Counted from the stretch's first letter, positions 2,251-17,554 are shown. The stretch is DNA of 24,000 nt from Pseudomonadota bacterium (GCA_023393525.1 JAEWKZ010000013.1:8509-32508); one strand, 5' to 3'. Made by a program: numbers and translations. Notes: generated by a model from the letters alone, not told the origin.

Positions 2251-4563
2251 CTATCCGAGCGAAAAAAGACGCACCCCGGCGGGATGGTCCTCCAGCCTAA
2301 GTCCCATGGCGGCCAATTCCGCACGCAGAGCGTCGGCCAAGGCGTAATTCTTGGCTTGGCGCGCCTCGTCGCGGCGGGCGACAAGGTCGCAAGCCTCCCG
2401 GGGCCATTGCCGCCTGGTCAGAGGCAGGCGCGAATGTTCGAGAAAACCGAGCACGCGGTCGCAACACAGCAGCTGTTCGGCCACCAGGGCGGCTTCGGGG
2501 GCGCTCATTTTGCCCGCGCGGCTGTTGACGCTTTTGGCGAAGGCGAAAAGGACCGGCCAGAAATGGGCCAGATCGAGATTGTCATCCAGAGCCGAGGCGA
2601 AGGCGGTCTTCAGGTCGTAATTGGCCTGCTCCAGTTCCGGGCTCATGCCCGTCCCCTCGCCGCCCAGGGAGGCGGAAACGTAGGCATCCTGAAGCCGATT
2701 CTGATTCTTTACCCACATGACCAGACTTTCCGACGAAAAGGCCAGGGACTTCATGTAGGAAGCGGACAAGAACCACAGGCGCAAGGCCGCTCCCGCACCC
2801 GCGATCTCCAGGGCCTCGGACAGGGAAGGCACGGTCTCGCCCTGTTCGCGCGGGGTCACGGGCTGGGACACCATCCAGGCCAGAGGGCGGACTCCGGCCC
2901 CTGCGCTCCAGATGGCGCCGAAATTATCCAGATGCGGAAAGCGGTGCGACTCCCCCGCCATCATGACCGACACCGAGCCCAGGGCATCCAGGGCCGTGGC
3001 CGCCAGTTGCAGAAACCAGCTCGGGCGCACCTTGCCCCATTCGGTCTCAAGCACATCGCCCAGCTTCAAGTCCTGTAGCGTCGCCCTTTTCAGCAAGGTG
3101 AAATCGGCGGGATTTTCCTTGGCATAGTCGGCCAGATCCACGGTATAGCCCAGATTCATGCCCGCCGTGTCCACGCAGGAGATCCGCCCGTAGGTCTTGT
3201 CGCGGGCCACGTCGAAATAAACGGACCGCAGCTTTTCGTAGGCCTGCCCCTTGGCCAGCAGCTTGCGAGCGAGATCCAGGGCCCGATCCTGACTGGCTCC
3301 GGCCAGAGGGAAAAGCACGGTGTCGGAAACGCCAAGCCTCCCGGCCTGGGCCAGCATGAACTCCCTCGCCCGCGCCCCGAAGTCCCGCAACCCGATCTTG
3401 GCTTCGCGGGCGGCGGCCAGGGCGCGGTCGTCCATGTCGGCCAGGCCCACGGCCATGCGGACCTTCTGCCCGCGCTCGGTCAGCGCCCTGCCCAGAACAT
3501 CGAGCCAGACGATGCGCCGCCACACGTCCAGCTCGCCAAGATCGTCCAGGCTCGGACCGGGCGTGAACAGCGCGTGCCCGCCGGCGGGGCTGCCCAGGCA
3601 TTCGACGCAATCACCGGCCACGTTGCGCACGCCCAGTCCATGCCGGGCCTGGGGCGAAAAGAGCGTGGTCGAAAGATAGCGCTCACCCGTGTCGGGACAG
3701 ATGAACACAATGAGCCCCTCTTCCCCGGCTTCATCCAGCTCCCGTGCGACGCGCAAGGCGCCGGCCAGCGCCGCTCCGGCGCTCATTCCCGATAGAATCC
3801 CCTCTTCCCGGGCCAAGCGGCGCGAACAATCGAAGGCCTCCTCGTCCTCGACATGGATGATCCGGTCCAGGGCGCGCTTGTCATAGATGCCTGGAGGATA
3901 GGACTCCTGCATGTTCTTGAGGCCCTGGATCTTGTGCCCGGCATAGGGCTCCACTGCCACGACACGGATGCCGGGGGCCGATTCCTTCATGCGCTTGGCG
4001 ATGCCCATGGCCGTGCCCGAGGTGCCGAGGCTCACGACAACATGGGTGGCCCGGCCCTCGGTCTGCTCAATGATCTCGCGGCCCGTGCCCATGTAGTGTG
4101 CGGCAATGCTGGCCGGGTTGTTGAACTGGTCCATGAGCACGTAGGTCTGCGACTCTTCGCGGGCCAGGCGGTAGGCTTCCTCGATGGCGCCGTCCGTGCC
4201 GAGCCGCCCCGGAGTGAGCCGCAGCTCCGCGCCGAAGGCGCGCATGATGCGCTTGCGTTCCTCGGAGGCCGAATCGGGCATGAGCAGGGTCAATTTGTAG
4301 CCCTTGACCGCGCAGACCATGGCCAAACCCACGCCGGTGTTGCCGCTGGTGGCCTCGATGACGGTCTTGTCCGGCGTCAATTCGCCGGAAGCCTCGGCCG
4401 CCTCGATCATGGCCAGGGCCACGCGATCCTTGATGGACCCGCCAACATTCTGGGCTTCGAGCTTGGTCGCCAGGCGGATGCGCGGATGCGGAAAGACGCG
4501 GTTCAGATAGACAACGGGAGTGGCCCCGATAAGGGAGAGAATGGTCGGATGGATCATGGACAT
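2251..4563 (-). CDS. Fusion protein: PLP-dependent cysteine synthase (CysK/CysM family) N-terminal domain plus degenerate cysteinyl-tRNA synthetase-like C-terminal module
   Basis: Residues 1-300 carry LIGATPVV, the PLP-lysine motif GGSIKDR, the TSGNTG loop and GTSGT. Residues about 330-770 are collinear with class-I CysRS as I recall it: WG..RP.W, FPH..N, RLWFLSASY...SSESL, FASALDDNLDLAHFWPVLF and the C-terminal ARQAKNYALADALRAEL..GLRLED. It is a single uninterrupted ORF. ATG 4557 is an alternative start. Confidence 0.85.
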   Translation of the reverse strand: MSMIHPTILSLIGATPVVYLNRVFPHPRIRLATKLEAQNVGGSIKDRVALAMIEAAEASGELTPDKTVIEATSGNTGVGLAMVCAVKGYKLTLLMPDSASEERKRIMRAFGAELRLTPGRLGTDGAIEEAYRLAREESQTYVLMDQFNNPASIAAHYMGTGREIIEQTEGRATHVVVSLGTSGTAMGIAKRMKESAPGIRVVAVEPYAGHKIQGLKNMQESYPPGIYDKRALDRIIHVEDEEAFDCSRRLAREEGILSGMSAGAALAGALRVARELDEAGEEGLIVFICPDTGERYLSTTLFSPQARHGLGVRNVAGDCVECLGSPAGGHALFTPGPSLDDLGELDVWRRIVWLDVLGRALTERGQKVRMAVGLADMDDRALAAAREAKIGLRDFGARAREFMLAQAGRLGVSDTVLFPLAGASQDRALDLARKLLAKGQAYEKLRSVYFDVARDKTYGRISCVDTAGMNLGYTVDLADYAKENPADFTLLKRATLQDLKLGDVLETEWGKVRPSWFLQLAATALDALGSVSVMMAGESHRFPHLDNFGAIWSAGAGVRPLAWMVSQPVTPREQGETVPSLSEALEIAGAGAALRLWFLSASYMKSLAFSSESLVMWVKNQNRLQDAYVSASLGGEGTGMSPELEQANYDLKTAFASALDDNLDLAHFWPVLFAFAKSVNSRAGKMSAPEAALVAEQLLCCDRVLGFLEHSRLPLTRRQWPREACDLVARRDEARQAKNYALADALRAELAAMGLRLEDHPAGVRLFSLG

Positions 4564-4754
4564 AACCCTGCTGATGGATTGGACGGAAGGGCGTAAACCT
4601 AGGGCAAAACCCGGTTCCGGGCAAGAGGCGGTTCGCCGCCTGGGGCGTAATCCCCCTGCTCTTTGCTGACTGGTTACAGACTCATCTCAGGGGTCGCATC
4701 TTGAATCTTGAATTTGTTTCATCTCGACCCCTTTCTTCATCCTCCGAAACCCAG

Positions 4755-4786
4755 CAAAAAAGGCCACCCGTTGCCGGGCGGCCTTT
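4755..4786 (-). terminator. Rho-independent terminator downstream of the HdrD-like gene
   Basis: On the minus strand, AGGCCGCCCG/CGGGTGGCCT forms a 10-bp stem with one mismatch and a 5-nt loop, followed by T6 (the complement of the A-run at 4756-4761). Confidence 0.6.
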
Positions 4787-4824: not shown

Positions 4825-6135
4825 CTATTCTTCCATCGGCTCCAGCCCCAGCCGCTCCCACTGCTCCCGCGCCTCGGCCTGGGCCGTGGCGACGCGCTCG
4901 GCCTCCCACGGTTCGATGACCAGGGCCTCGGCCACCAGCTGCCAGATGTATTTCACCTCGTAGGTACAGTCGGGGTAGAATTTGGGGATGCGGCGCATGA
5001 TCTGGTCGCGGCAGTTGGAGCAGCCCACGACCACCACGTCCGCGCCCGAATCCTTGATCTGCCGGTATTTGTAGCGCGCGTGCCAGGCCGACTGCTCCTC
5101 GAAGGGCATGGGCCACATGCCGCCGCCCGCGCCGCAGCAGAAATTCTTCTCCCGCGTCGGGGTCAGTTCCACGAAGTCGTCCACGCAGGCCGCCACGATC
5201 TCGCGCGGCTCGTCGAAAAAGCCCTTGCCGTAATGCGCGGCCAGCTCGCGTCCGTGTTTGCACGAATCGTGAAAGGTGAAGCGCTTGCCCTTGTGCACGC
5301 TTTTGTCCAGGCGGATGCGCCCCTGGCGGATGAGATCCAGCAAATAATCGTAGAGATAGACATGCCCCACGGCATTGTCCGGATTCTCCGCCGCCAGCGC
5401 ACTCATGCCCTTGCGGCAGCCATAGGACCCGCCGCCGCAATCCGGCATGATCATGGTCTTTATGGCGTTTGAGCGCATGTATTCGATCTTGCGCCGCGCG
5501 AGTTCCCTGTTTCCTTCGTAGTTGCCGGTGAAGAGCGCCCAGTCCACGGCCTCCCAGCCTTCCGACGGCACGGTCCAGTTCTCGCGGGCGGCATAGAAGA
5601 TCTTCCACCACCAGAACTGGTCCTCGAAATCGCCGTACACTTCCTTGGAATTGGGAAAAAAGAGGATGTCCGCGCCCGCCCGGTCCACCGGCACGTAAAA
5701 GCCGGGGCATTCCTCGGCCAGGTCCGCGCCCAGATCGCGCATGCCTTCGAGGTACTCCTCGCGGCTGATGGCCAGATTGTTGCCCGTGGCCAGATTGTTG
5801 GCCATGCCCTTGTGCAGGGAGCCGGGCACCGCCTCGCGCGGGCGCAGGCTCTTCATGTGGCCCATGACGGAGGGGATGTCGATGCCCGCCGGGCAGACCC
5901 CGGCGCAGCGTCCGCAGCCCGTGCACAGCCAGGGAAAATCCGACGCCACGACCTCGTCAACCAGGCCGTTGGCCAGCATGCGCATGACCTTGCGCGTATC
6001 CCACCCGCCCATGCCGGGCGTGCCCGTGACCGGGCAGCCATTGGCGCATGATCCGCAGACCATGCAGGATGAAAAATCGAAGCGCTCCAGAAAGGAGCGC
6101 AGATCCGTACTCATAAATGATGACGAGATACTCAT
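4825..6135 (-). CDS. HdrD/DsrK/GlpC-like iron-sulfur oxidoreductase (two 4Fe-4S ferredoxin motifs plus CCG cysteine-rich domains)
   Basis: Two CxxCxxCxxxCP motifs are present (CMVCGSCANGCP, CTGCGRCAGVCP). CCG-type motifs follow: PDCGGGSYGC, HDSC, FCCGAGGG and GCSNC. An AAGGA RBS lies 7 nt upstream of ATG 6135. Confidence 0.8.
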   Translation of the reverse strand: MSISSSFMSTDLRSFLERFDFSSCMVCGSCANGCPVTGTPGMGGWDTRKVMRMLANGLVDEVVASDFPWLCTGCGRCAGVCPAGIDIPSVMGHMKSLRPREAVPGSLHKGMANNLATGNNLAISREEYLEGMRDLGADLAEECPGFYVPVDRAGADILFFPNSKEVYGDFEDQFWWWKIFYAARENWTVPSEGWEAVDWALFTGNYEGNRELARRKIEYMRSNAIKTMIMPDCGGGSYGCRKGMSALAAENPDNAVGHVYLYDYLLDLIRQGRIRLDKSVHKGKRFTFHDSCKHGRELAAHYGKGFFDEPREIVAACVDDFVELTPTREKNFCCGAGGGMWPMPFEEQSAWHARYKYRQIKDSGADVVVVGCSNCRDQIMRRIPKFYPDCTYEVKYIWQLVAEALVIEPWEAERVATAQAEAREQWERLGLEPMEE

Positions 6136-6418
6136 AGCTATCCTTGCCCGACACTGACCATCACATCCAGGCTTAAAAAGTATCTTTCAGCAATATTCAC
6201 AAGTCAACAAATTATGTTCGTTTTCGAAAATCTGAATGCCTCACGAGGCTCCGAACCTGGCTCCAGGCTCGTGCAACGCTCAAGATGCGCGCAACTCATT
6301 ATTCAAAAACGAAATGCATATTAATCAGTACACACGGACTCCGCGCTCTTGAATTCATAACGATTTCAATCTATACGCACTTTTGACAATGTCCCACCTT
6401 CATCACCCAGGATTATTC

Positions 6419-7204
6419 ATGCGTATCGGACTTGCCACCGCACCCGTTCCCGAGACTCTGGAGCATTCGCTCAGCCACATTTTCGACTTCATGGATCAGG
6501 CCGCCCCGTTCGACGTGGATCTGATCTGCTTTCCCGAAGCCTATCTGCCCGGAATGCGCGGACAGGGCTTTTCCATCCCCCTGTGCGAACAGGCGGAGCT
6601 TCGCGCCGCCCTCTCGCGAGTCTGCGAAGCGGCTGCCGACCACCACATGGGAGTCATCCTGCCCATGGAATGGCCTTCGGAGCAGGGGCGCTACAATCTG
6701 GTGCAGGTCATTTCGCCCGAAGGAAAGATCCTGGGACGGCAATGCAAAACCCAGCTCGATCCGGAAGAGGACGGGCTCTACATCCCCGGACGGGGGCGAC
6801 AGATTTTCGAGGTCGGCGGAGTCAAGTTCGGGGTGTCGATCTGCCACGAGGGGTGGCGCTACCCGGAAACGGTGCGTTGGGCCGCCTGCCGGGGCGCGCA
6901 GATCGTCTTTCATCCGCAGTGCACGGGCAGCAACGCGTCGGAACGTTCGGCGCACGAATGGGGCGATCCCGACGGCCCGTATTACGAAAAAGCCATGGTC
7001 TGCCGCAGCGTCGAGAACGGCATTTTCTTCGCCAGCGTGAATTACGCCCTGAGCTGCCAGTATTCCGCAACCAGCCTGGTCGCGCCCGACGGATCGTGTC
7101 TGGCCCACCAGCCCTATGGGCAGCCCGGACTTTTGGTGCAACAATTGGAGCTGGAGCTGGCTTCCGGCCTACCGGCCAGACGCTTTGCGCCGGACCGCTA
7201 CTGA
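6419..7204 (+). CDS. Carbon-nitrogen hydrolase (nitrilase superfamily)
   Basis: Glu-Lys-Cys triad contexts are present: FPEAYLPG, KTQLDPEE and SICHEGWRYPE. I place the start at ATG 6419 (MRIGLA, AGGA 7 nt upstream). The TTG at 6383 is less likely. Confidence 0.8.
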   Translation: MRIGLATAPVPETLEHSLSHIFDFMDQAAPFDVDLICFPEAYLPGMRGQGFSIPLCEQAELRAALSRVCEAAADHHMGVILPMEWPSEQGRYNLVQVISPEGKILGRQCKTQLDPEEDGLYIPGRGRQIFEVGGVKFGVSICHEGWRYPETVRWAACRGAQIVFHPQCTGSNASERSAHEWGDPDGPYYEKAMVCRSVENGIFFASVNYALSCQYSATSLVAPDGSCLAHQPYGQPGLLVQQLELELASGLPARRFAPDRY

Positions 7205-7210
7205 AACGCT

Positions 7211-8551
7211 TTACTGCCCATCCAGTCCGAATTTCTTCATCTTGCTGCGCAAGGTGACCCGCGTCACGCCAAGAACCCGGGCCGCCTCGCTTTTGTTGTT
7301 GCCGACCTGCTCCAGGGCGCGCGCGATGGCCTCGCGCTCGGCGTCCTCCAGTGACTGCCCCGCAGGCGCGGCATCGACGCTTTTTTCGCTTCCGCGCAGG
7401 TTCGCGGGCAGGTCGGCCTCGGTGACCAGCTCGCCGGGCGAGAGAATGACCGCCCGTTCCACCACGTTCTCAAGCTCGCGCACGTTCCCCGGCCAGTCGT
7501 AATGCAGCATCAGATCCATGACCCGGGGCGAAAAGCCGCGAAAGGTCTTGCGGTTGCGCCGGGCGAAGCGGTTCAGGAAATGCCGGGCCAGGAGAGGAAT
7601 GTCCTCGAGCCGCTCCCGCAAGGCGGGAACGCGCAAGGCGATGACGTTCAAGCGATAGTACAGATCTTCGCGAAAGCCCCCGCCCTGAACTTCGGCCTCC
7701 AGATCGCGGTTGGTCGCGGCGAGAACCCGCACATCGACCCGGATCGCCTTGTCGCTGCCCAGGCGCTGCACCTCCCCCTGTTGCAGGGCGCGCAAGAGCT
7801 TGGCTTGGAGCGCGGGAGCCATCTCCCCGATCTCGTCCAGAAAAAGCGTTCCTCCGTCGGCCTGCACGAACCTTCCGTCCCGCTGGCGCTGCGCTCCGGT
7901 GTAGGCCCCCTTTTCGTGACCGAAGAGTTCGCTTTCCAGCAGATTTTCAGCCAGGGCCGCGCAATTGACCGTGACCAGCGGACGTTTCCTGCGTGGGCTG
8001 CCCTCGTGCAGCGCCTTGGCCACCAGCTCCTTGCCCGTGCCCGATTCTCCCAGAATCAGCACCGACGCCTCCGATGGGGCCACGGCCCGGATCATGGCCG
8101 CGAGTTCGCGCATGGGGGGCGAATCGCCGATCATCTCCGAAACCGGGTCGGCCTCTCCGCTTGGGGCCTGCTCCGGACGGTGGGCCGCGCCCTGCGCCAA
8201 TGCCCGCTCAAGCCCCTGTCGCAGCTCCTCGAAATCCAGGGGCTTGTGCAGGTAATCGAGCGCCCCGGCCTTCAAGGCCCGCACCGCCACGTCCACGGAA
8301 GAGTAGGCGGTCATGATCAGCACGGGCAGATAGGGATTGTAGAGCTTTATGCGTCGCAAAGCCTCTATGCCGTCCACTTCGGCCATGCGTACGTCGGTCA
8401 GGACCACATCGTAGGCGCGCTGACGCACCTTGTTCACGGCCATGCCCCCGTCGTCGGCCGTATCGACCTCGTACCCCCAGCTGCCAAGCATGGCCACCAG
8501 CATGGTCATGTGCGCCCGGTCATCGTCGACCACCAGAATTCGCGCCTTCAT
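7211..8551 (-). CDS. Sigma-54-dependent response regulator (NtrC/ZraR/AtoC family: Rec + AAA+ + Fis-type HTH)
   Basis: The receiver shows ILVVDDD, VLTDVRMAE and YLHKP. The AAA+ domain has Walker A GESGTGKE, the sigma-54 contact loop GAYTGA, Walker B LFLDEI and WPGNVRELEN. The C-terminal HTH reads NKSEAARVLGVTRVTLRSKMKKFG. Its start overlaps the kinase stop (ATGA at 8548-8551). Confidence 0.9.
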   Translation of the reverse strand: MKARILVVDDDRAHMTMLVAMLGSWGYEVDTADDGGMAVNKVRQRAYDVVLTDVRMAEVDGIEALRRIKLYNPYLPVLIMTAYSSVDVAVRALKAGALDYLHKPLDFEELRQGLERALAQGAAHRPEQAPSGEADPVSEMIGDSPPMRELAAMIRAVAPSEASVLILGESGTGKELVAKALHEGSPRRKRPLVTVNCAALAENLLESELFGHEKGAYTGAQRQRDGRFVQADGGTLFLDEIGEMAPALQAKLLRALQQGEVQRLGSDKAIRVDVRVLAATNRDLEAEVQGGGFREDLYYRLNVIALRVPALRERLEDIPLLARHFLNRFARRNRKTFRGFSPRVMDLMLHYDWPGNVRELENVVERAVILSPGELVTEADLPANLRGSEKSVDAAPAGQSLEDAEREAIARALEQVGNNKSEAARVLGVTRVTLRSKMKKFGLDGQ

Positions 8552-16366: not shown

Positions 16367-17554
16367 ATGAGCAGCACGACACCACTCATTCAACTCCGCA
16401 ATATTTCCAAGGCGTTCGGCGGCCGGGAAATACTGCGTGACGCCACTCTTGACATACGGCGCAACGAGATCACCGCCATCATCGGAAAAAGCGGGGGGGG
16501 CAAGAGCGTCCTGGTCAAGCACATCATCGGGCTGATCACCGCGGACAGCGGAGAGATCATTTTCGACGGAATCCCCTATTCGACCATGAAGCGAAAGGAT
16601 TTTTCGGCGATCAAGAATCGTTGCAGCTACATGTTCCAGAACAACGCCCTGTTCGACTCCATGACCGTGTTCGAGAACATCGCCCTGCCCCTGCGCGAAA
16701 AATTCAAATTCCCCAAAAAGGACATTGAGGACAAGGTCCGCGCGCGCATCGAACAGCTCGAACTGACCGAAGTGGCGCAGATGTATCCCAAGCAGATTTC
16801 GGGCGGCATGCAGAAACGCGTGGCCCTGGCGCGGGCGCTGGTCACGGAGCCGGAAATCATCTTCTTCGACGAACCGACCACCGGACTCGACCCCATCCGC
16901 AAGAAGACCGTGTTCTCCATGATCCACCGCTACCACGAGAAGCTCAATTTCACCGCGGTCATCATCACCCACGACATTCCGGACATCTTCTACATCGCCC
17001 ACGCGGTGAACATTCTGGATGAAGGCCGGATAATCTTCTCCGGTTCGCCGGTGGCTCTGGAACAATCCTCCGATCCAGGCCTCTACACCTACACCCATGG
17101 CCACGAAATGCTCATCGACGAACTGACCGGCCTGCACAACAGGCTCTCGCTGGTGCGCAAAATCGAGGCCTCCGGCTCCCATCGGGAAGGCCGCCTCGTC
17201 CTGGCCACGGTCAGGCTGGTGGGCATGCGCACGGTGATGGACTACAAGGGCGAACTTCTGGCCCACGCCTTCATCAGGAACCTGGCCAAATTCGTGCATT
17301 CGTTTTTACCGCCACAGGCCTGCGCGGGAATGTTTTCCAAGGAGATCCTGGTCCTGGCGGCCAGGACCGGGGAGGAATCGACCCTCGAACTGTTCCTGGA
17401 GCGGCTCGCAAACTATTTCACCAATCTGGCCATCGAAACGTATTGCCACAAACACAGACTTCAGGTCGAAATCGGCGGCGCGGTCGTCTCCGACGAATCA
17501 AACGCCTACACGGCCATTCAGGAAGCACTCGCAACATCCAAGAAGTACGTATGA
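16367..17554 (+). CDS. mlaF: MlaF-type ABC ATPase with a roughly 150-aa C-terminal degenerate GGDEF-like domain
   Basis: The ATPase has Walker A GKSGGGKS, a Q-loop, the signature ISGGMQKR, Walker B IIFFDEPTTGLD and the H-loop ITHD. From residue 251 the sequence reads DELTGLHNR (the canonical GGDEF-domain opening), and FSKEI occupies the position where GG[DE]EF is expected. Confidence 0.85.
   Translation: MSSTTPLIQLRNISKAFGGREILRDATLDIRRNEITAIIGKSGGGKSVLVKHIIGLITADSGEIIFDGIPYSTMKRKDFSAIKNRCSYMFQNNALFDSMTVFENIALPLREKFKFPKKDIEDKVRARIEQLELTEVAQMYPKQISGGMQKRVALARALVTEPEIIFFDEPTTGLDPIRKKTVFSMIHRYHEKLNFTAVIITHDIPDIFYIAHAVNILDEGRIIFSGSPVALEQSSDPGLYTYTHGHEMLIDELTGLHNRLSLVRKIEASGSHREGRLVLATVRLVGMRTVMDYKGELLAHAFIRNLAKFVHSFLPPQACAGMFSKEILVLAARTGEESTLELFLERLANYFTNLAIETYCHKHRLQVEIGGAVVSDESNAYTAIQEALATSKKYV

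Follow-up and report, generated by a model that had tools for sequence, protein, structure and literature searches.

The window analysed here, a 24,000-nucleotide stretch of DNA from a sulfate-reducing bacterium (Desulfomicrobium), carries on its minus strand a single gene that joins a cysteine synthase to a degenerate relative of cysteinyl-tRNA synthetase (CysRS). Its parts, given in window coordinates and in residues of the longest ORF, are as follows.

2251..4557, minus strand: fusion gene, probably 768 amino acids, with a probable ATG start at 4557-4555
3658..4539, minus strand: CysK/CysM-type cysteine synthase domain (residues 9-302, PLP fold type II), from PALP, TIGR01136 and Foldseek
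4429..4431, minus strand: PLP-binding lysine K45 in GGSIKDR, invariant in a 71-sequence alignment (A2)
4333..4350, minus strand: Asn loop TSGNTG (residues 72-77), which binds the substrate α-carboxylate, invariant in the same alignment
3574..3657, minus strand: inter-domain linker (residues 303-330), with low sequence conservation and the lowest pLDDT
2869..3573, minus strand: Rossmann fold and CP domain of CysRS origin (residues 331-565), their active site destroyed, from tRNA-synt_1e (5.5e-25) and alignment to 1LI5 and 8QHP
3523..3534, minus strand: degenerate HIGH position (ELDV), from family alignment columns
2824..2850, minus strand: degenerate, partly deleted KMSKS loop (residues 572-580), its columns variable or gapped across the family
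2419..2763, minus strand: helical-bundle domain (residues 601-715), collinear with CysRS, pLDDT mostly above 90
[quoted passage not shown]
2332..2373, minus strand: equivalents of the G34-reading residues, R731 (R423), R735 (R427), Y740 (W432) and D744 (D436)

The first-pass annotation had described this gene as a cysteine synthase fused to a catalytically degenerate CysRS-like module, and that observation is confirmed. The longest ORF, 2251..4563 on the minus strand, encodes 770 residues and contains both modules as claimed; only the start is refined. The ATG at 4557, giving a 768-residue protein that begins MIHP, is most likely the true start, because the promoter is conserved, the conserved RBS spacing suits this ATG, and relatives begin at MIHP. 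The Pfam search that the annotation had proposed places PALP at residues 9-289 (1.1e-68), tRNA-synt_1e at residues 333-614 and, as a weak match, CysS_C at residues 721-760. The AF2 model of the fusion has a pLDDT of 88.9, falling to its minimum of 63-68 in the linker (residue blocks 291-310), and a pTM of 0.65, which gives moderate confidence in the predicted mutual placement of the two domains. A frameshift or assembly error at the junction, raised earlier as a concern, is ruled out, since the same architecture of ∼760-785 amino acids recurs as a single ORF across hundreds of independent assemblies.

The surroundings of the gene contain the following elements.

4596..4624, minus strand: conserved sigma-70-like promoter, TTGCCC (4624-4619), 17 nt, TAGGTT (4601-4596)
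4610-4621, minus strand: palindrome CCCGGAACCGGG within the promoter spacer
4756..4783, minus strand: intrinsic terminator of the upstream HdrD-like gene, GGCCGCCCGGCAACGGGTGGCC followed by TTTTTT
2262..2286, minus strand: putative terminator-like hairpin with a T-run, at the final codons of the gene and overlapping them, from a consensus scan

The promoter block is nearly invariant in seven upstream regions of the Desulfomicrobium group, and sequence farther upstream is unalignable. The upstream HdrD-like gene has its own terminator, so that the fusion gene is monocistronic; this neighbor is also not conserved among loci and was rejected as a partner. The only recurrent neighbor, a Maf/MptE-like glycosyltransferase gene, lies directly upstream in 16 of 48 assessable loci, and we attribute this to lineage synteny rather than partnership. 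Among the loci compared there is no conserved operon partner. The leader is only ∼30 nt long, Rfam finds no riboswitch or T-box at gathering or E-value thresholds, and neither the window nor any of 47 loci has a tRNA-Cys gene linked to the fusion. Considered together, these features place any coupling between the two halves within the polypeptide itself. Neither a separate cysS nor a separate cysK was found in the ∼1 Mb of flanking sequence covered.

The N-terminal half is a CysM/CysK-type cysteine synthase, predicted from its motifs and modeled fold to be active. It scores 354.2 bits against the curated NCBIfam model TIGR01136 (cysKM; cutoff 344.15) and falls below the equivalog cutoffs of both cysM (342.7 against 394.2 bits) and cysK (316.3 against 350.95 bits); phmmer matches CysK and CysM structures alike, at E ∼1e-74. 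In Foldseek, this part of the AF2 model superposes on CysK and CysM as a fold type II domain, with target-normalised TM-scores of 0.89-0.95 and an rmsd of 1.6-1.9 Å. K45 has the coordinates first assigned to it, and the TSGNTG loop is present as described. The motif GGS[IV]KDR is found in 115/115 family members, as is TSGNTG, which also occurs in all 112 fusions that retain the Zn site, and the Gly/Thr phosphate loop GTSGT is conserved in 115/115 relatives. A dN/dS of 0.03-0.06 indicates purifying selection. The earlier description of an apparently functional O-acetylserine sulfhydrylase thus agrees with the cysKM score and with the superposition, although the activity itself is a prediction.

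The Asn loop of O-acetylserine sulfhydrylases clamps the free α-carboxylate of the substrate, and its invariance here argues that a free amino acid is the substrate. This bears on a reading in which the PLP domain acts as a SepCysS analog, converting Sep-, Ser- or OAS-tRNA-Cys to Cys-tRNA-Cys while the dead CysRS module holds the tRNA. Such a reaction would suit a β-replacement PLP enzyme covalently joined to a putative tRNA-Cys-binding module with intact anticodon residues, but we consider it very improbable. SepCysS is a fold type I PLP enzyme that acts on Sep-tRNA-Cys with SepRS as its partner, whereas the domain here has fold type II and an intact Asn loop, and the fusion has no linked gene for a SepRS-like enzyme or any other that mischarges tRNA.

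The C-terminal part, 440 residues long, derives from CysRS over its full length and is, by its motifs, catalytically dead. The phmmer alignment is collinear with 1LI5 residues 20-456, and Foldseek aligns the module with 1U0B_B over 482 columns, gaps included, of a 461-residue target (target-normalised TM 0.74). The domain order of CysRS is preserved throughout (Rossmann fold, CP, SC-fold, helical bundle, C-terminal α/β domain), so Pfam, sequence alignment and fold comparison agree on the CysRS kinship proposed at first. By contrast, MshC structures match only part of the catalytic domain, at E ∼1e-3, and the adenylation motifs that define MshC are absent while an anticodon domain, which MshC lacks, is present; an MshC-like identity was therefore rejected.

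The motif replacements first read by eye were borne out by phmmer against E. coli CysRS (1LI5) and by the family alignments: ELDV (E344-V347) stands at the HIGH position, ETVPS (2824-2838) at the KMSKS position, and CGIT, WHIEC and FPHHENE have become PGPS, WFLQL and FPHLDNF. Neither HIGH nor KMSKS is found in the ORF or in any of 116 relatives, whose HIGH columns read D/G/E, L/P, D/E and A/V, without the His and Gly of the motif; K266 and K269 are present in at most 1% of the family. The annotation had also regarded the Zn/cysteine ligands as replaced. This holds for C28 (P335; P/M/I/V across the 116 relatives), C209 (L520; L/H/M/Q) and E238 (F548; L/F), but not for His234, which is kept as H544 in 115 of the 116. 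Of the Zn site as a whole (C28, C209, H234, E238 and W205), only H544 and W516, the equivalent of W205, are left, and H206, E208 and T68 are replaced as well. Because canonical binding of ATP, Zn and cysteine is gone, the module is predicted to be unable to charge tRNA, in line with the original view that it was unlikely to activate cysteine by the canonical route.

Certain class I synthetases function with variant signature motifs, such as TIGN in bacterial TrpRS and KMSSS in eukaryotic TyrRS, and fused relatives that have HLGN/KMSRS and whose Zn ligands are intact (e.g., P0138) may well be active. A working CysRS that activates cysteine in a non-canonical way, making the protein truly bifunctional, would fit with these precedents. 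For the window's family we nonetheless regard it as extremely unlikely, given the missing His and Gly of HIGH, the deleted or variable KMSKS loop, the replacement of three of four Zn ligands together with H206, E208 and T68, and a score of 137.8 bits against the CysRS equivalog TIGR00435, whose cutoff is 340.

The same residues bear on the suggestion of persulfide chemistry. E. coli and mammalian CARS reportedly use PLP to make Cys-SSH, and a PLP enzyme linked to a CysRS-like module in sulfide-rich organisms could recall this activity. It depends, however, on the lysines of KIIK (73-76) and KMSK (266-269) (PMC10655014). The ORF reads RALA at 73-76, K73 being Arg in 84% of the family and K76 replaced by Ala, and the KMSK lysines are missing as described above. 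The absence of both lysine sets leaves the idea unsupported in the CARS sense, and we hold a persulfide synthase of this type to be highly improbable.

The decay of the module is selective: catalysis is lost and the anticodon residues are retained. Of the columns canonically conserved in CysRS, the module keeps 1/10 in the SC-fold/KMSKS region, 7/22 in Rossmann-C, 10/23 in Rossmann-N, 15/22 in CP and 7/7 in the C-terminal anticodon domain; under the overall retention rate, 7/7 has a probability of 0.004. In the passage of PMC12684709 that cites Hauenstein 2004, the residues of E. coli CysRS that read G34 in 1U0B are given as R423, R427, D436 and an aromatic residue at 432. R423, R427, D436, R439 and D451 are kept in 116/116 family sequences, and position 432 is aromatic throughout (99 Phe, 17 Tyr). 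The C-terminal domain thus has the residue set for recognizing a GCA anticodon, the first-pass statement that this region is retained stands, and binding of tRNA-Cys by the module may be inferred from these residues.

Constraint within the module does not follow the same gradient. Its dN/dS is 0.10-0.20 overall and 0.12-0.29 in the anticodon domain, and the most constrained part is not the anticodon domain but the former catalytic core (Rossmann fold and CP, 0.08-0.12). Among 116 sequences of 53-93% identity, 79 positions of the module are near-invariant. Eighteen invariant residues are specific to the family, and several lie at the old active site, including F517 (for H206), Q519 (for E208) and W552, which suggests that the pocket has been remodeled and serves a distinct function. 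In one such alternative, the pocket would bind another ligand (O-acetylserine, N-acetylserine, a sulfur carrier or a nucleotide) or carry out an ATP-independent reaction on Cys-tRNA-Cys (deacylation, editing or transfer), with tRNA as substrate rather than signal. The constraint on the core is consistent with this, as are the further family-specific invariants R446 and R454 and the invariance of W205, R202-P203, F232-P233-H234 and N237 near the old cysteine pocket, and the retained anticodon residues suit a tRNA substrate equally well. Against it, no candidate set of catalytic residues can be named, no conserved neighboring gene points to an acceptor or pathway, and Zn, the usual thiolate handle, is lost. 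We treat it as a doubtful but serious alternative.

It is also conceivable, though unlikely in our judgement, that the module is a structural relic that binds no RNA and serves the cysteine synthase as a scaffold for folding, solubility or oligomerization. Eight residues, mostly in CP, are common to all fused forms and rare in stand-alone CysRS (including R350, K444, T489, R493, L496, K500 and G502), a pattern consistent with an inter-domain interface. Moreover, the degenerate module was never found by itself among the homologs; P0121, P0122 and several other apparent stand-alone representatives are contig-end fragments of fused proteins. A scaffold of 440 residues would be costly, yet dN/dS is only 0.1-0.2, and a purely structural role leaves unexplained the 100% retention of the anticodon readers across more than 330 diverged sequences while the surrounding domain evolves comparatively fast.

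The module is encoded in at least 588 species-representative genomes, which answers the earlier question of its phyletic distribution; the best 80 matches are all from Desulfovibrionales, and the family is confined to sulfur-metabolizing Thermodesulfobacteriota. When the nearest stand-alone CysRS served as query, the homologs retrieved were mostly further fusions. In an NJ tree, the window's clade is nested within a fused KMSRS-type clade, and the window's protein lies at the most eroded extreme of a broader PALP-CysRS fused clade of Thermodesulfobacteriota. We surveyed erosion in 112 Zn-retaining fusions and ∼104 other fusions whose Zn ligands vary. Catalytic motifs across this wider clade erode in many mosaic patterns, while R423, R427, D436, R439 and D451 are present in all scored sequences. 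The protein probably derives from a bifunctional CysM-CysRS fusion, of which variously eroded forms persist across Thermodesulfobacteriota. The graded series, from intact motifs, through forms whose ATP site is eroded but whose Zn site persists, to forms in which only the anticodon readers are left, shows a path from an aminoacyl-tRNA synthetase (aaRS) to a pseudo-enzyme.

Our preferred reading, to which we assign a probability of roughly one half, is that a predicted active cysteine synthase carries a non-catalytic tRNA-Cys-binding module that serves as its sensor or regulatory domain. The module would bind tRNA-Cys through the GCA anticodon; it has kept all of the anticodon-recognition apparatus and the greater part of CP, the acceptor-side domain. 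Binding would be coupled to the attached cysteine synthase, and cysteine output would track the state or abundance of tRNA-Cys; this regulatory coupling and its direction are speculative. At the level of sequence, the protein has the hallmarks of a pseudo-aaRS sensor: lost aminoacylation motifs, a retained tRNA surface, purifying selection and an attached effector. A narrower version, in which a tRNA-Cys-specific protein sensor gates cysteine synthase allosterically by tRNA-Cys charging or abundance, and this non-translational role is shared by the whole fused clade, is tentative and well short of an even chance.

Were the preferred reading true, amino-acid synthesis in a bacterium would be tied directly and post-translationally to tRNA status, through a module that is specific for one tRNA and attached to the synthase of the amino acid which that tRNA carries. 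Inactive synthetase domains with preserved recognition of their tRNA are, to our knowledge, rare, and informative where studied, as in GCN2. The confinement of so large a family to sulfur-metabolizing Thermodesulfobacteriota also points to a conserved part of the cysteine physiology of sulfate reducers. There are consequences for annotation: entries named cysteine synthase in Desulfovibrionales hide a 440-residue predicted tRNA-binding module, and many fusions named cysteine--tRNA ligase have no credible HIGH or KMSKS and may not be synthetases.

A full-text literature search aimed at the fusion found no published characterization, in agreement with the first-pass annotation, and the fusion is not described in PMC2922099, PMC5424206, PMC5389517, PMC8762117 or PMC10133479. 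Comparison with characterized systems therefore proceeds half by half. The N-terminal domain agrees with CysK and CysM in sequence, motifs and fold, and resembles CysM in its GTSGT phosphate loop and top fold match, but CysM and CysK have no C-terminal pseudo-synthetase of 440 residues. With CysRS (E. coli CysS, 1LI5, 1U0B) the module shares fold and domain order over ∼440 residues, CP motifs and all conserved residues of the anticodon domain. CysRS, however, is a stand-alone enzyme and has HIGH, KMSKS, C28, C209, E238, H206, E208 and T68, all of which the module lacks. MshC is likewise derived from CysRS, but it still carries out adenylation and has no anticodon domain for tRNA. CysRS* of Desulfobacterales, which is catalytically active and has no anticodon-binding domain (PMC5389517), also derives from CysRS and shows the pattern opposite to that of the fusion module.

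The closest relatives are the other PALP-CysRS fusions of Thermodesulfobacteriota, named cysteine--tRNA ligase by NCBI (for example in Desulfofustis limnaeus, Desulforhopalus singaporensis, Thermosulfurimonas marina, Desulfonema ishimotonii and Ca. Desulfofervidaceae), among which no characterized member is apparent. They share two-domain architecture, length and fusion-associated residues with the window's clade, nest with it in the tree and retain the anticodon residues 100%. They differ in keeping the Zn/cysteine site (CCHE, CCHV or YCHV), which the Desulfovibrionales clade has lost, and a minority keep HLGN/KMSRS, neither of which the window's clade retains.

Similar regulatory logic is found in more distant systems. 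HisZ, a HisRS paralog that regulates the ATP-phosphoribosyltransferase HisG, is likewise a dead aaRS paralog recruited to control biosynthesis of its cognate amino acid; unlike the fusion module, it is a separate subunit without an anticodon-binding domain and senses histidine, not tRNA. The HisRS-like domain of eukaryotic GCN2 is also an inactive aaRS-derived domain on an effector enzyme, and senses starvation by binding uncharged tRNA. The analogy is one of logic and implies no homology, since GCN2 uses another synthetase class and a kinase effector and is not specific for one tRNA. The T-box is an RNA-based device of similar logic. If the preferred reading is correct, the fusion would be a bacterial, single-polypeptide counterpart of GCN2 or the T-box whose direct target is a metabolic enzyme and not gene expression.

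The fusion of cysteine synthase to a CysRS-like module is a single open reading frame, organized as follows:

2251-4563, minus strand: fusion ORF, 770 codons (ORF list)
Residues 9-289, minus strand: PALP domain (Pfam, 1.1e-68)
Residues 333-614, minus strand: tRNA-synt_1e, class-I CysRS catalytic domain (Pfam, 5.5e-25)
Residues 721-760, minus strand: CysS_C, weak match (Pfam)

In a phmmer search of PDB sequences, residues 322-770 are collinear with E. coli CysRS residues 20-456 (1LI5, 5.6e-29) and also align collinearly to 8QHP (6.8e-31). All coordinates in the first-pass annotation are correct. Translation probably begins at the ATG at 4557, because close relatives open with MIHP and a conserved ribosome-binding site (CAGGG) is correctly spaced for that codon only. 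A terminator-like hairpin followed by a T-run lies inside the last 12 codons of the gene (HPAGVRLFSLG; window 2262-2286, minus strand).

When the C-terminal 449 residues were used as query, a word-indexed search gave 942 matches. Among the best 120, 116 are proteins of ∼754-785 aa with both PALP and tRNA-synt_1e, and the other four are shorter, truncated fragments, two of which still carry both domains; the named matches among these 120 are Desulfovibrionales proteins labeled “cysteine synthase.” Scanning one genome per species, we found the CysRS-like module in at least 588 genomes, the closest match being a Desulfomicrobium MAG at 95% identity, which assigns the window to a Desulfomicrobium. 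The best 80 of these are nearly all labeled Desulfovibrionales taxa (Desulfomicrobium, Maridesulfovibrio, Pseudodesulfovibrio, Solidesulfovibrio, Salidesulfovibrio, Desulfocurvus, Humidesulfovibrio, Desulfohalobiaceae, Desulfonatronovibrio, and Desulfonatronospira); the few others are MAGs under generic or different labels. Because the two-domain architecture is this widespread, a sequencing frameshift at the junction, which the first-pass annotation had raised as a possible artefact, is excluded. Sequences that looked like stand-alone copies of the degenerate module proved to be fragments truncated at contig ends. One 8.8-kb Desulfovibrionaceae MAG contig (locus L062) carries two pseudo-CysRS modules with identical scores 2.9 kb apart (2277-3623 and 5200-6546), through either tandem duplication or an artefact of assembly.

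By sequence, motifs, and predicted fold, the N-terminal half is a normal, intact cysteine synthase. Its score with NCBIfam TIGR01136 (cysKM) is 354.2 bits, above the cutoff of 344.15, and it is placed between the CysM and CysK equivalogs, below the cutoff of each. All 115 relatives keep the PLP lysine (K45), the Asn loop TSGNTG, and the phosphate loop GTSGT. Compared with five relatives from the Desulfomicrobium group, this half has a dN/dS of 0.03-0.06. Superposing the AlphaFold2 model of the protein (mean pLDDT 88.9) on structures of CysK and CysM gives target-normalised TM values of 0.89-0.95. A SepCysS-like tRNA-dependent route to cysteine is disfavored by the invariance of the free-carboxylate Asn loop and by the lack of a partner enzyme linked to the gene.

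The C-terminal half is, by alignment, a CysRS that has selectively decayed. We compared 116 family members that share 53-93% identity with the window protein. Across them, the position of C28 (E. coli numbering) is P, M, I, V, L, or F; the HIGH columns read D/G/E, L/P, D/E, and A/V; C209 is replaced by L/H/M/Q, E238 by L/F, and H235 by L; and the KMSKS loop varies and is deleted in many members. The window protein scores 138 bits with the CysRS equivalog model, against a cutoff of 340. The substitutions proposed by eye in the first-pass annotation (C28 to P335, HIGH to ELDV at 344-347, WHIEC to WFLQL, FPHHENE to FPHLDNF), together with the missing KMSKS, are each reproduced in the phmmer alignment. 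Its proposed loss of the Zn ligands holds for three of the four but not for His234, which is kept as H544. A CARS-type persulfide synthase is excluded on the lysine criterion, KIIK being replaced by RALA and KMSK being absent. For columns at least 85% conserved in 79 canonical CysRS representatives, retention of the same residue in the family differs by subdomain:

Rossmann-N: 10 of 23 columns kept
CP domain: 15 of 22 columns kept
Rossmann-C: 7 of 22 columns kept
SC-fold with KMSKS: 1 of 10 columns kept
Helical bundle: 1 of 3 columns kept
C-terminal alpha/beta anticodon domain: 7 of 7 columns kept

The aligned CysRS-derived module has lost the residues that determine binding of ATP, Zn, and cysteine. 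Given the overall retention of 41/87, the chance of keeping all seven anticodon-domain columns is 0.004. In the E. coli CysRS-tRNA-Cys complex, as described in PMC12684709 (citing Hauenstein et al., 2004), Arg427 and Asp436 read G34, which stacks on Trp432, with a water network via Arg423. R423, R427, and D436 are each present in 116/116 family members, and position 432 is always aromatic (F in 99, Y in 17). The dN/dS of the module is 0.10-0.20 overall and 0.08-0.12 in its Rossmann plus CP core, and 79 of its positions are near-invariant among the 116 members. These comparisons show the anticodon-reading residues to be held under purifying selection. A role of the module purely as a scaffold fits poorly with their complete retention.

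More distant fused proteins and intermediates emerged when representatives at 50% identity were searched exhaustively, and a neighbor-joining tree nests the window's clade within a CysRS subclade mostly fused to PALP. In searches with two subclade members, the PALP-CysRS architecture is common in other Thermodesulfobacteriota (Desulfofustis limnaeus, Desulforhopalus singaporensis, Ca. Desulfofervidaceae, Thermosulfurimonas dismutans and marina, Desulforegula conservatrix, Desulfonema ishimotonii), where NCBI usually names it “cysteine--tRNA ligase,” and occurs in at least one Myxococcota MAG. Among 112 sequences resembling P0138, a Zn-retaining fused relative, W205 is present in all and the four Zn ligands in 111, the remaining one reading CCHA. 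The first His of HIGH and the basic second residue of KMSKS occur together in only 28 of the 112, and both are lost in 60 (for example, SLSL/KMSPE in D. limnaeus). In ∼104 further fused sequences the Zn site is variable (YCHV, CCHV, and others). R423, R427, D436, R439, and D451 are kept in every sequence scored from both sets.

At the level of motifs, the fused clade shows mosaic erosion of its catalytic signatures, with the window's clade at the extreme of the series, where ATP and Zn sites are both gone. Active motif variants exist, namely TrpRS with TIGN and eukaryotic TyrRS with KMSSS, so the Zn-retaining relatives cannot be called inactive on motif loss alone; only in the window's clade is the argument for a dead enzyme strong. 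Proteins that NCBI names “cysteine--tRNA ligase,” including P0336 (D. limnaeus, locus L089 8001-10340), P0364, P0451, P0457, P0432, P0490, and many MAG proteins, often have no credible HIGH (SLSL, NLSM, DLLH, QVAT) and/or KMSKS, and some have changed Zn ligands (YCHV, CCHV); such fusions may be mis-annotated non-synthetases. P0163, from a Nanoarchaeota MAG (DPANN archaeon, MFW6014224.1), also joins PALP to CysRS and has HIGN, WHLEC, and KMSKS in fully canonical form. In the tree it branches apart from the fused clade of bacteria; it probably arose by a separate fusion event and is probably truly bifunctional.

Eight residues, mainly in the CP-domain motif FTLLKRxxLxxLKxG, are common to all fused forms and rare in stand-alone CysRS, and may mark an inter-domain interface. 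A further 18 are specific to the degenerate clade, among them F517 (H206), Q519 (E208), and W552 in the former active site. These clade-specific invariant residues, with the strong constraint on the dead core, favor the main rival to a tRNA-sensing, regulatory role: a remodeled pocket that would hold a new ligand or carry out an ATP-independent reaction on Cys-tRNA-Cys.

The region upstream of the fusion gene contains the following features:

4825-6135, minus strand: HdrD/GlpC-like gene directly upstream, with a 4Fe-4S dicluster domain and a CCG cysteine-rich domain
4756-4783, minus strand: clear intrinsic terminator ending the HdrD-like gene
4596-4624, minus strand: promoter-like block of the fusion gene (TTGCCC, 17 nt, TAGGTT)
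4610-4621, minus strand: perfect palindrome CCCGGAACCGGG in the promoter spacer

Immediately 5' of the fusion gene, ∼60 nt are nearly invariant in the Desulfomicrobium group (the window and loci L005, L006, L007, L009, L010, and L011), and sequence beyond this block is unalignable. The palindrome may be an operator for some regulator. The leader after the promoter-like block is ∼30 nt, and an Rfam search found no riboswitch or T-box upstream of the gene.

Neighboring genes vary from genus to genus, and the HdrD-like gene has no conserved adjacency in other genera. ORF clustering of 82 loci yielded a single recurrent neighbor, a Maf/MptE-like protein; only 16 of the 48 loci that could be assessed have it directly upstream. 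This gene (flagellin glycosyltransferase-type, ∼600 aa) is divergent and 17-250 bp upstream in the Maridesulfovibrio/Pseudodesulfovibrio group (L004, L014-L017, L020, L027, L032, L036, L039, and others) and absent in Desulfomicrobium and Desulfohalobiaceae. No linked tRNA-Cys gene was found in the window or the 47 loci scanned. One of the 47, L037 (Solidesulfovibrio alcoholivorans), has a tRNA-SeC gene (8129-8205) ∼800 bp downstream of the fusion, probably by coincidence. With no conserved partner, leader element, or linked tRNA-Cys, any joint role of the two halves would therefore be encoded in the fusion itself. No separate cysS, cysK, or cysE was found in ∼1 Mb of flanks, and a homologue search with the nearest stand-alone CysRS as query recovered mostly further fusions. 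Elsewhere in the window, an ORF at 16367-17554 (plus strand) heading an MlaD-MlaC-MlaA gene set encodes an ABC-transporter ATPase domain and, toward its C terminus, matches GGDEF weakly (7.7e-05, below the Pfam cutoff), an unusual pairing if real.

Considered together, the alignments show an intact cysteine synthase joined to a CysRS-derived module. Given what is established for class I synthetases, we infer that this module is unable to aminoacylate and probably still binds tRNA-Cys through its GCA anticodon. More speculatively, such binding would regulate, or be regulated by, the attached cysteine synthase. We found no published description of the PALP-CysRS architecture in the literature searched, which omits most subscription-journal papers. 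As analogies only, this pseudo-CysRS-cysteine synthase fusion can be likened to the HisRS-like domain of GCN2, to HisZ, and to the T-box.
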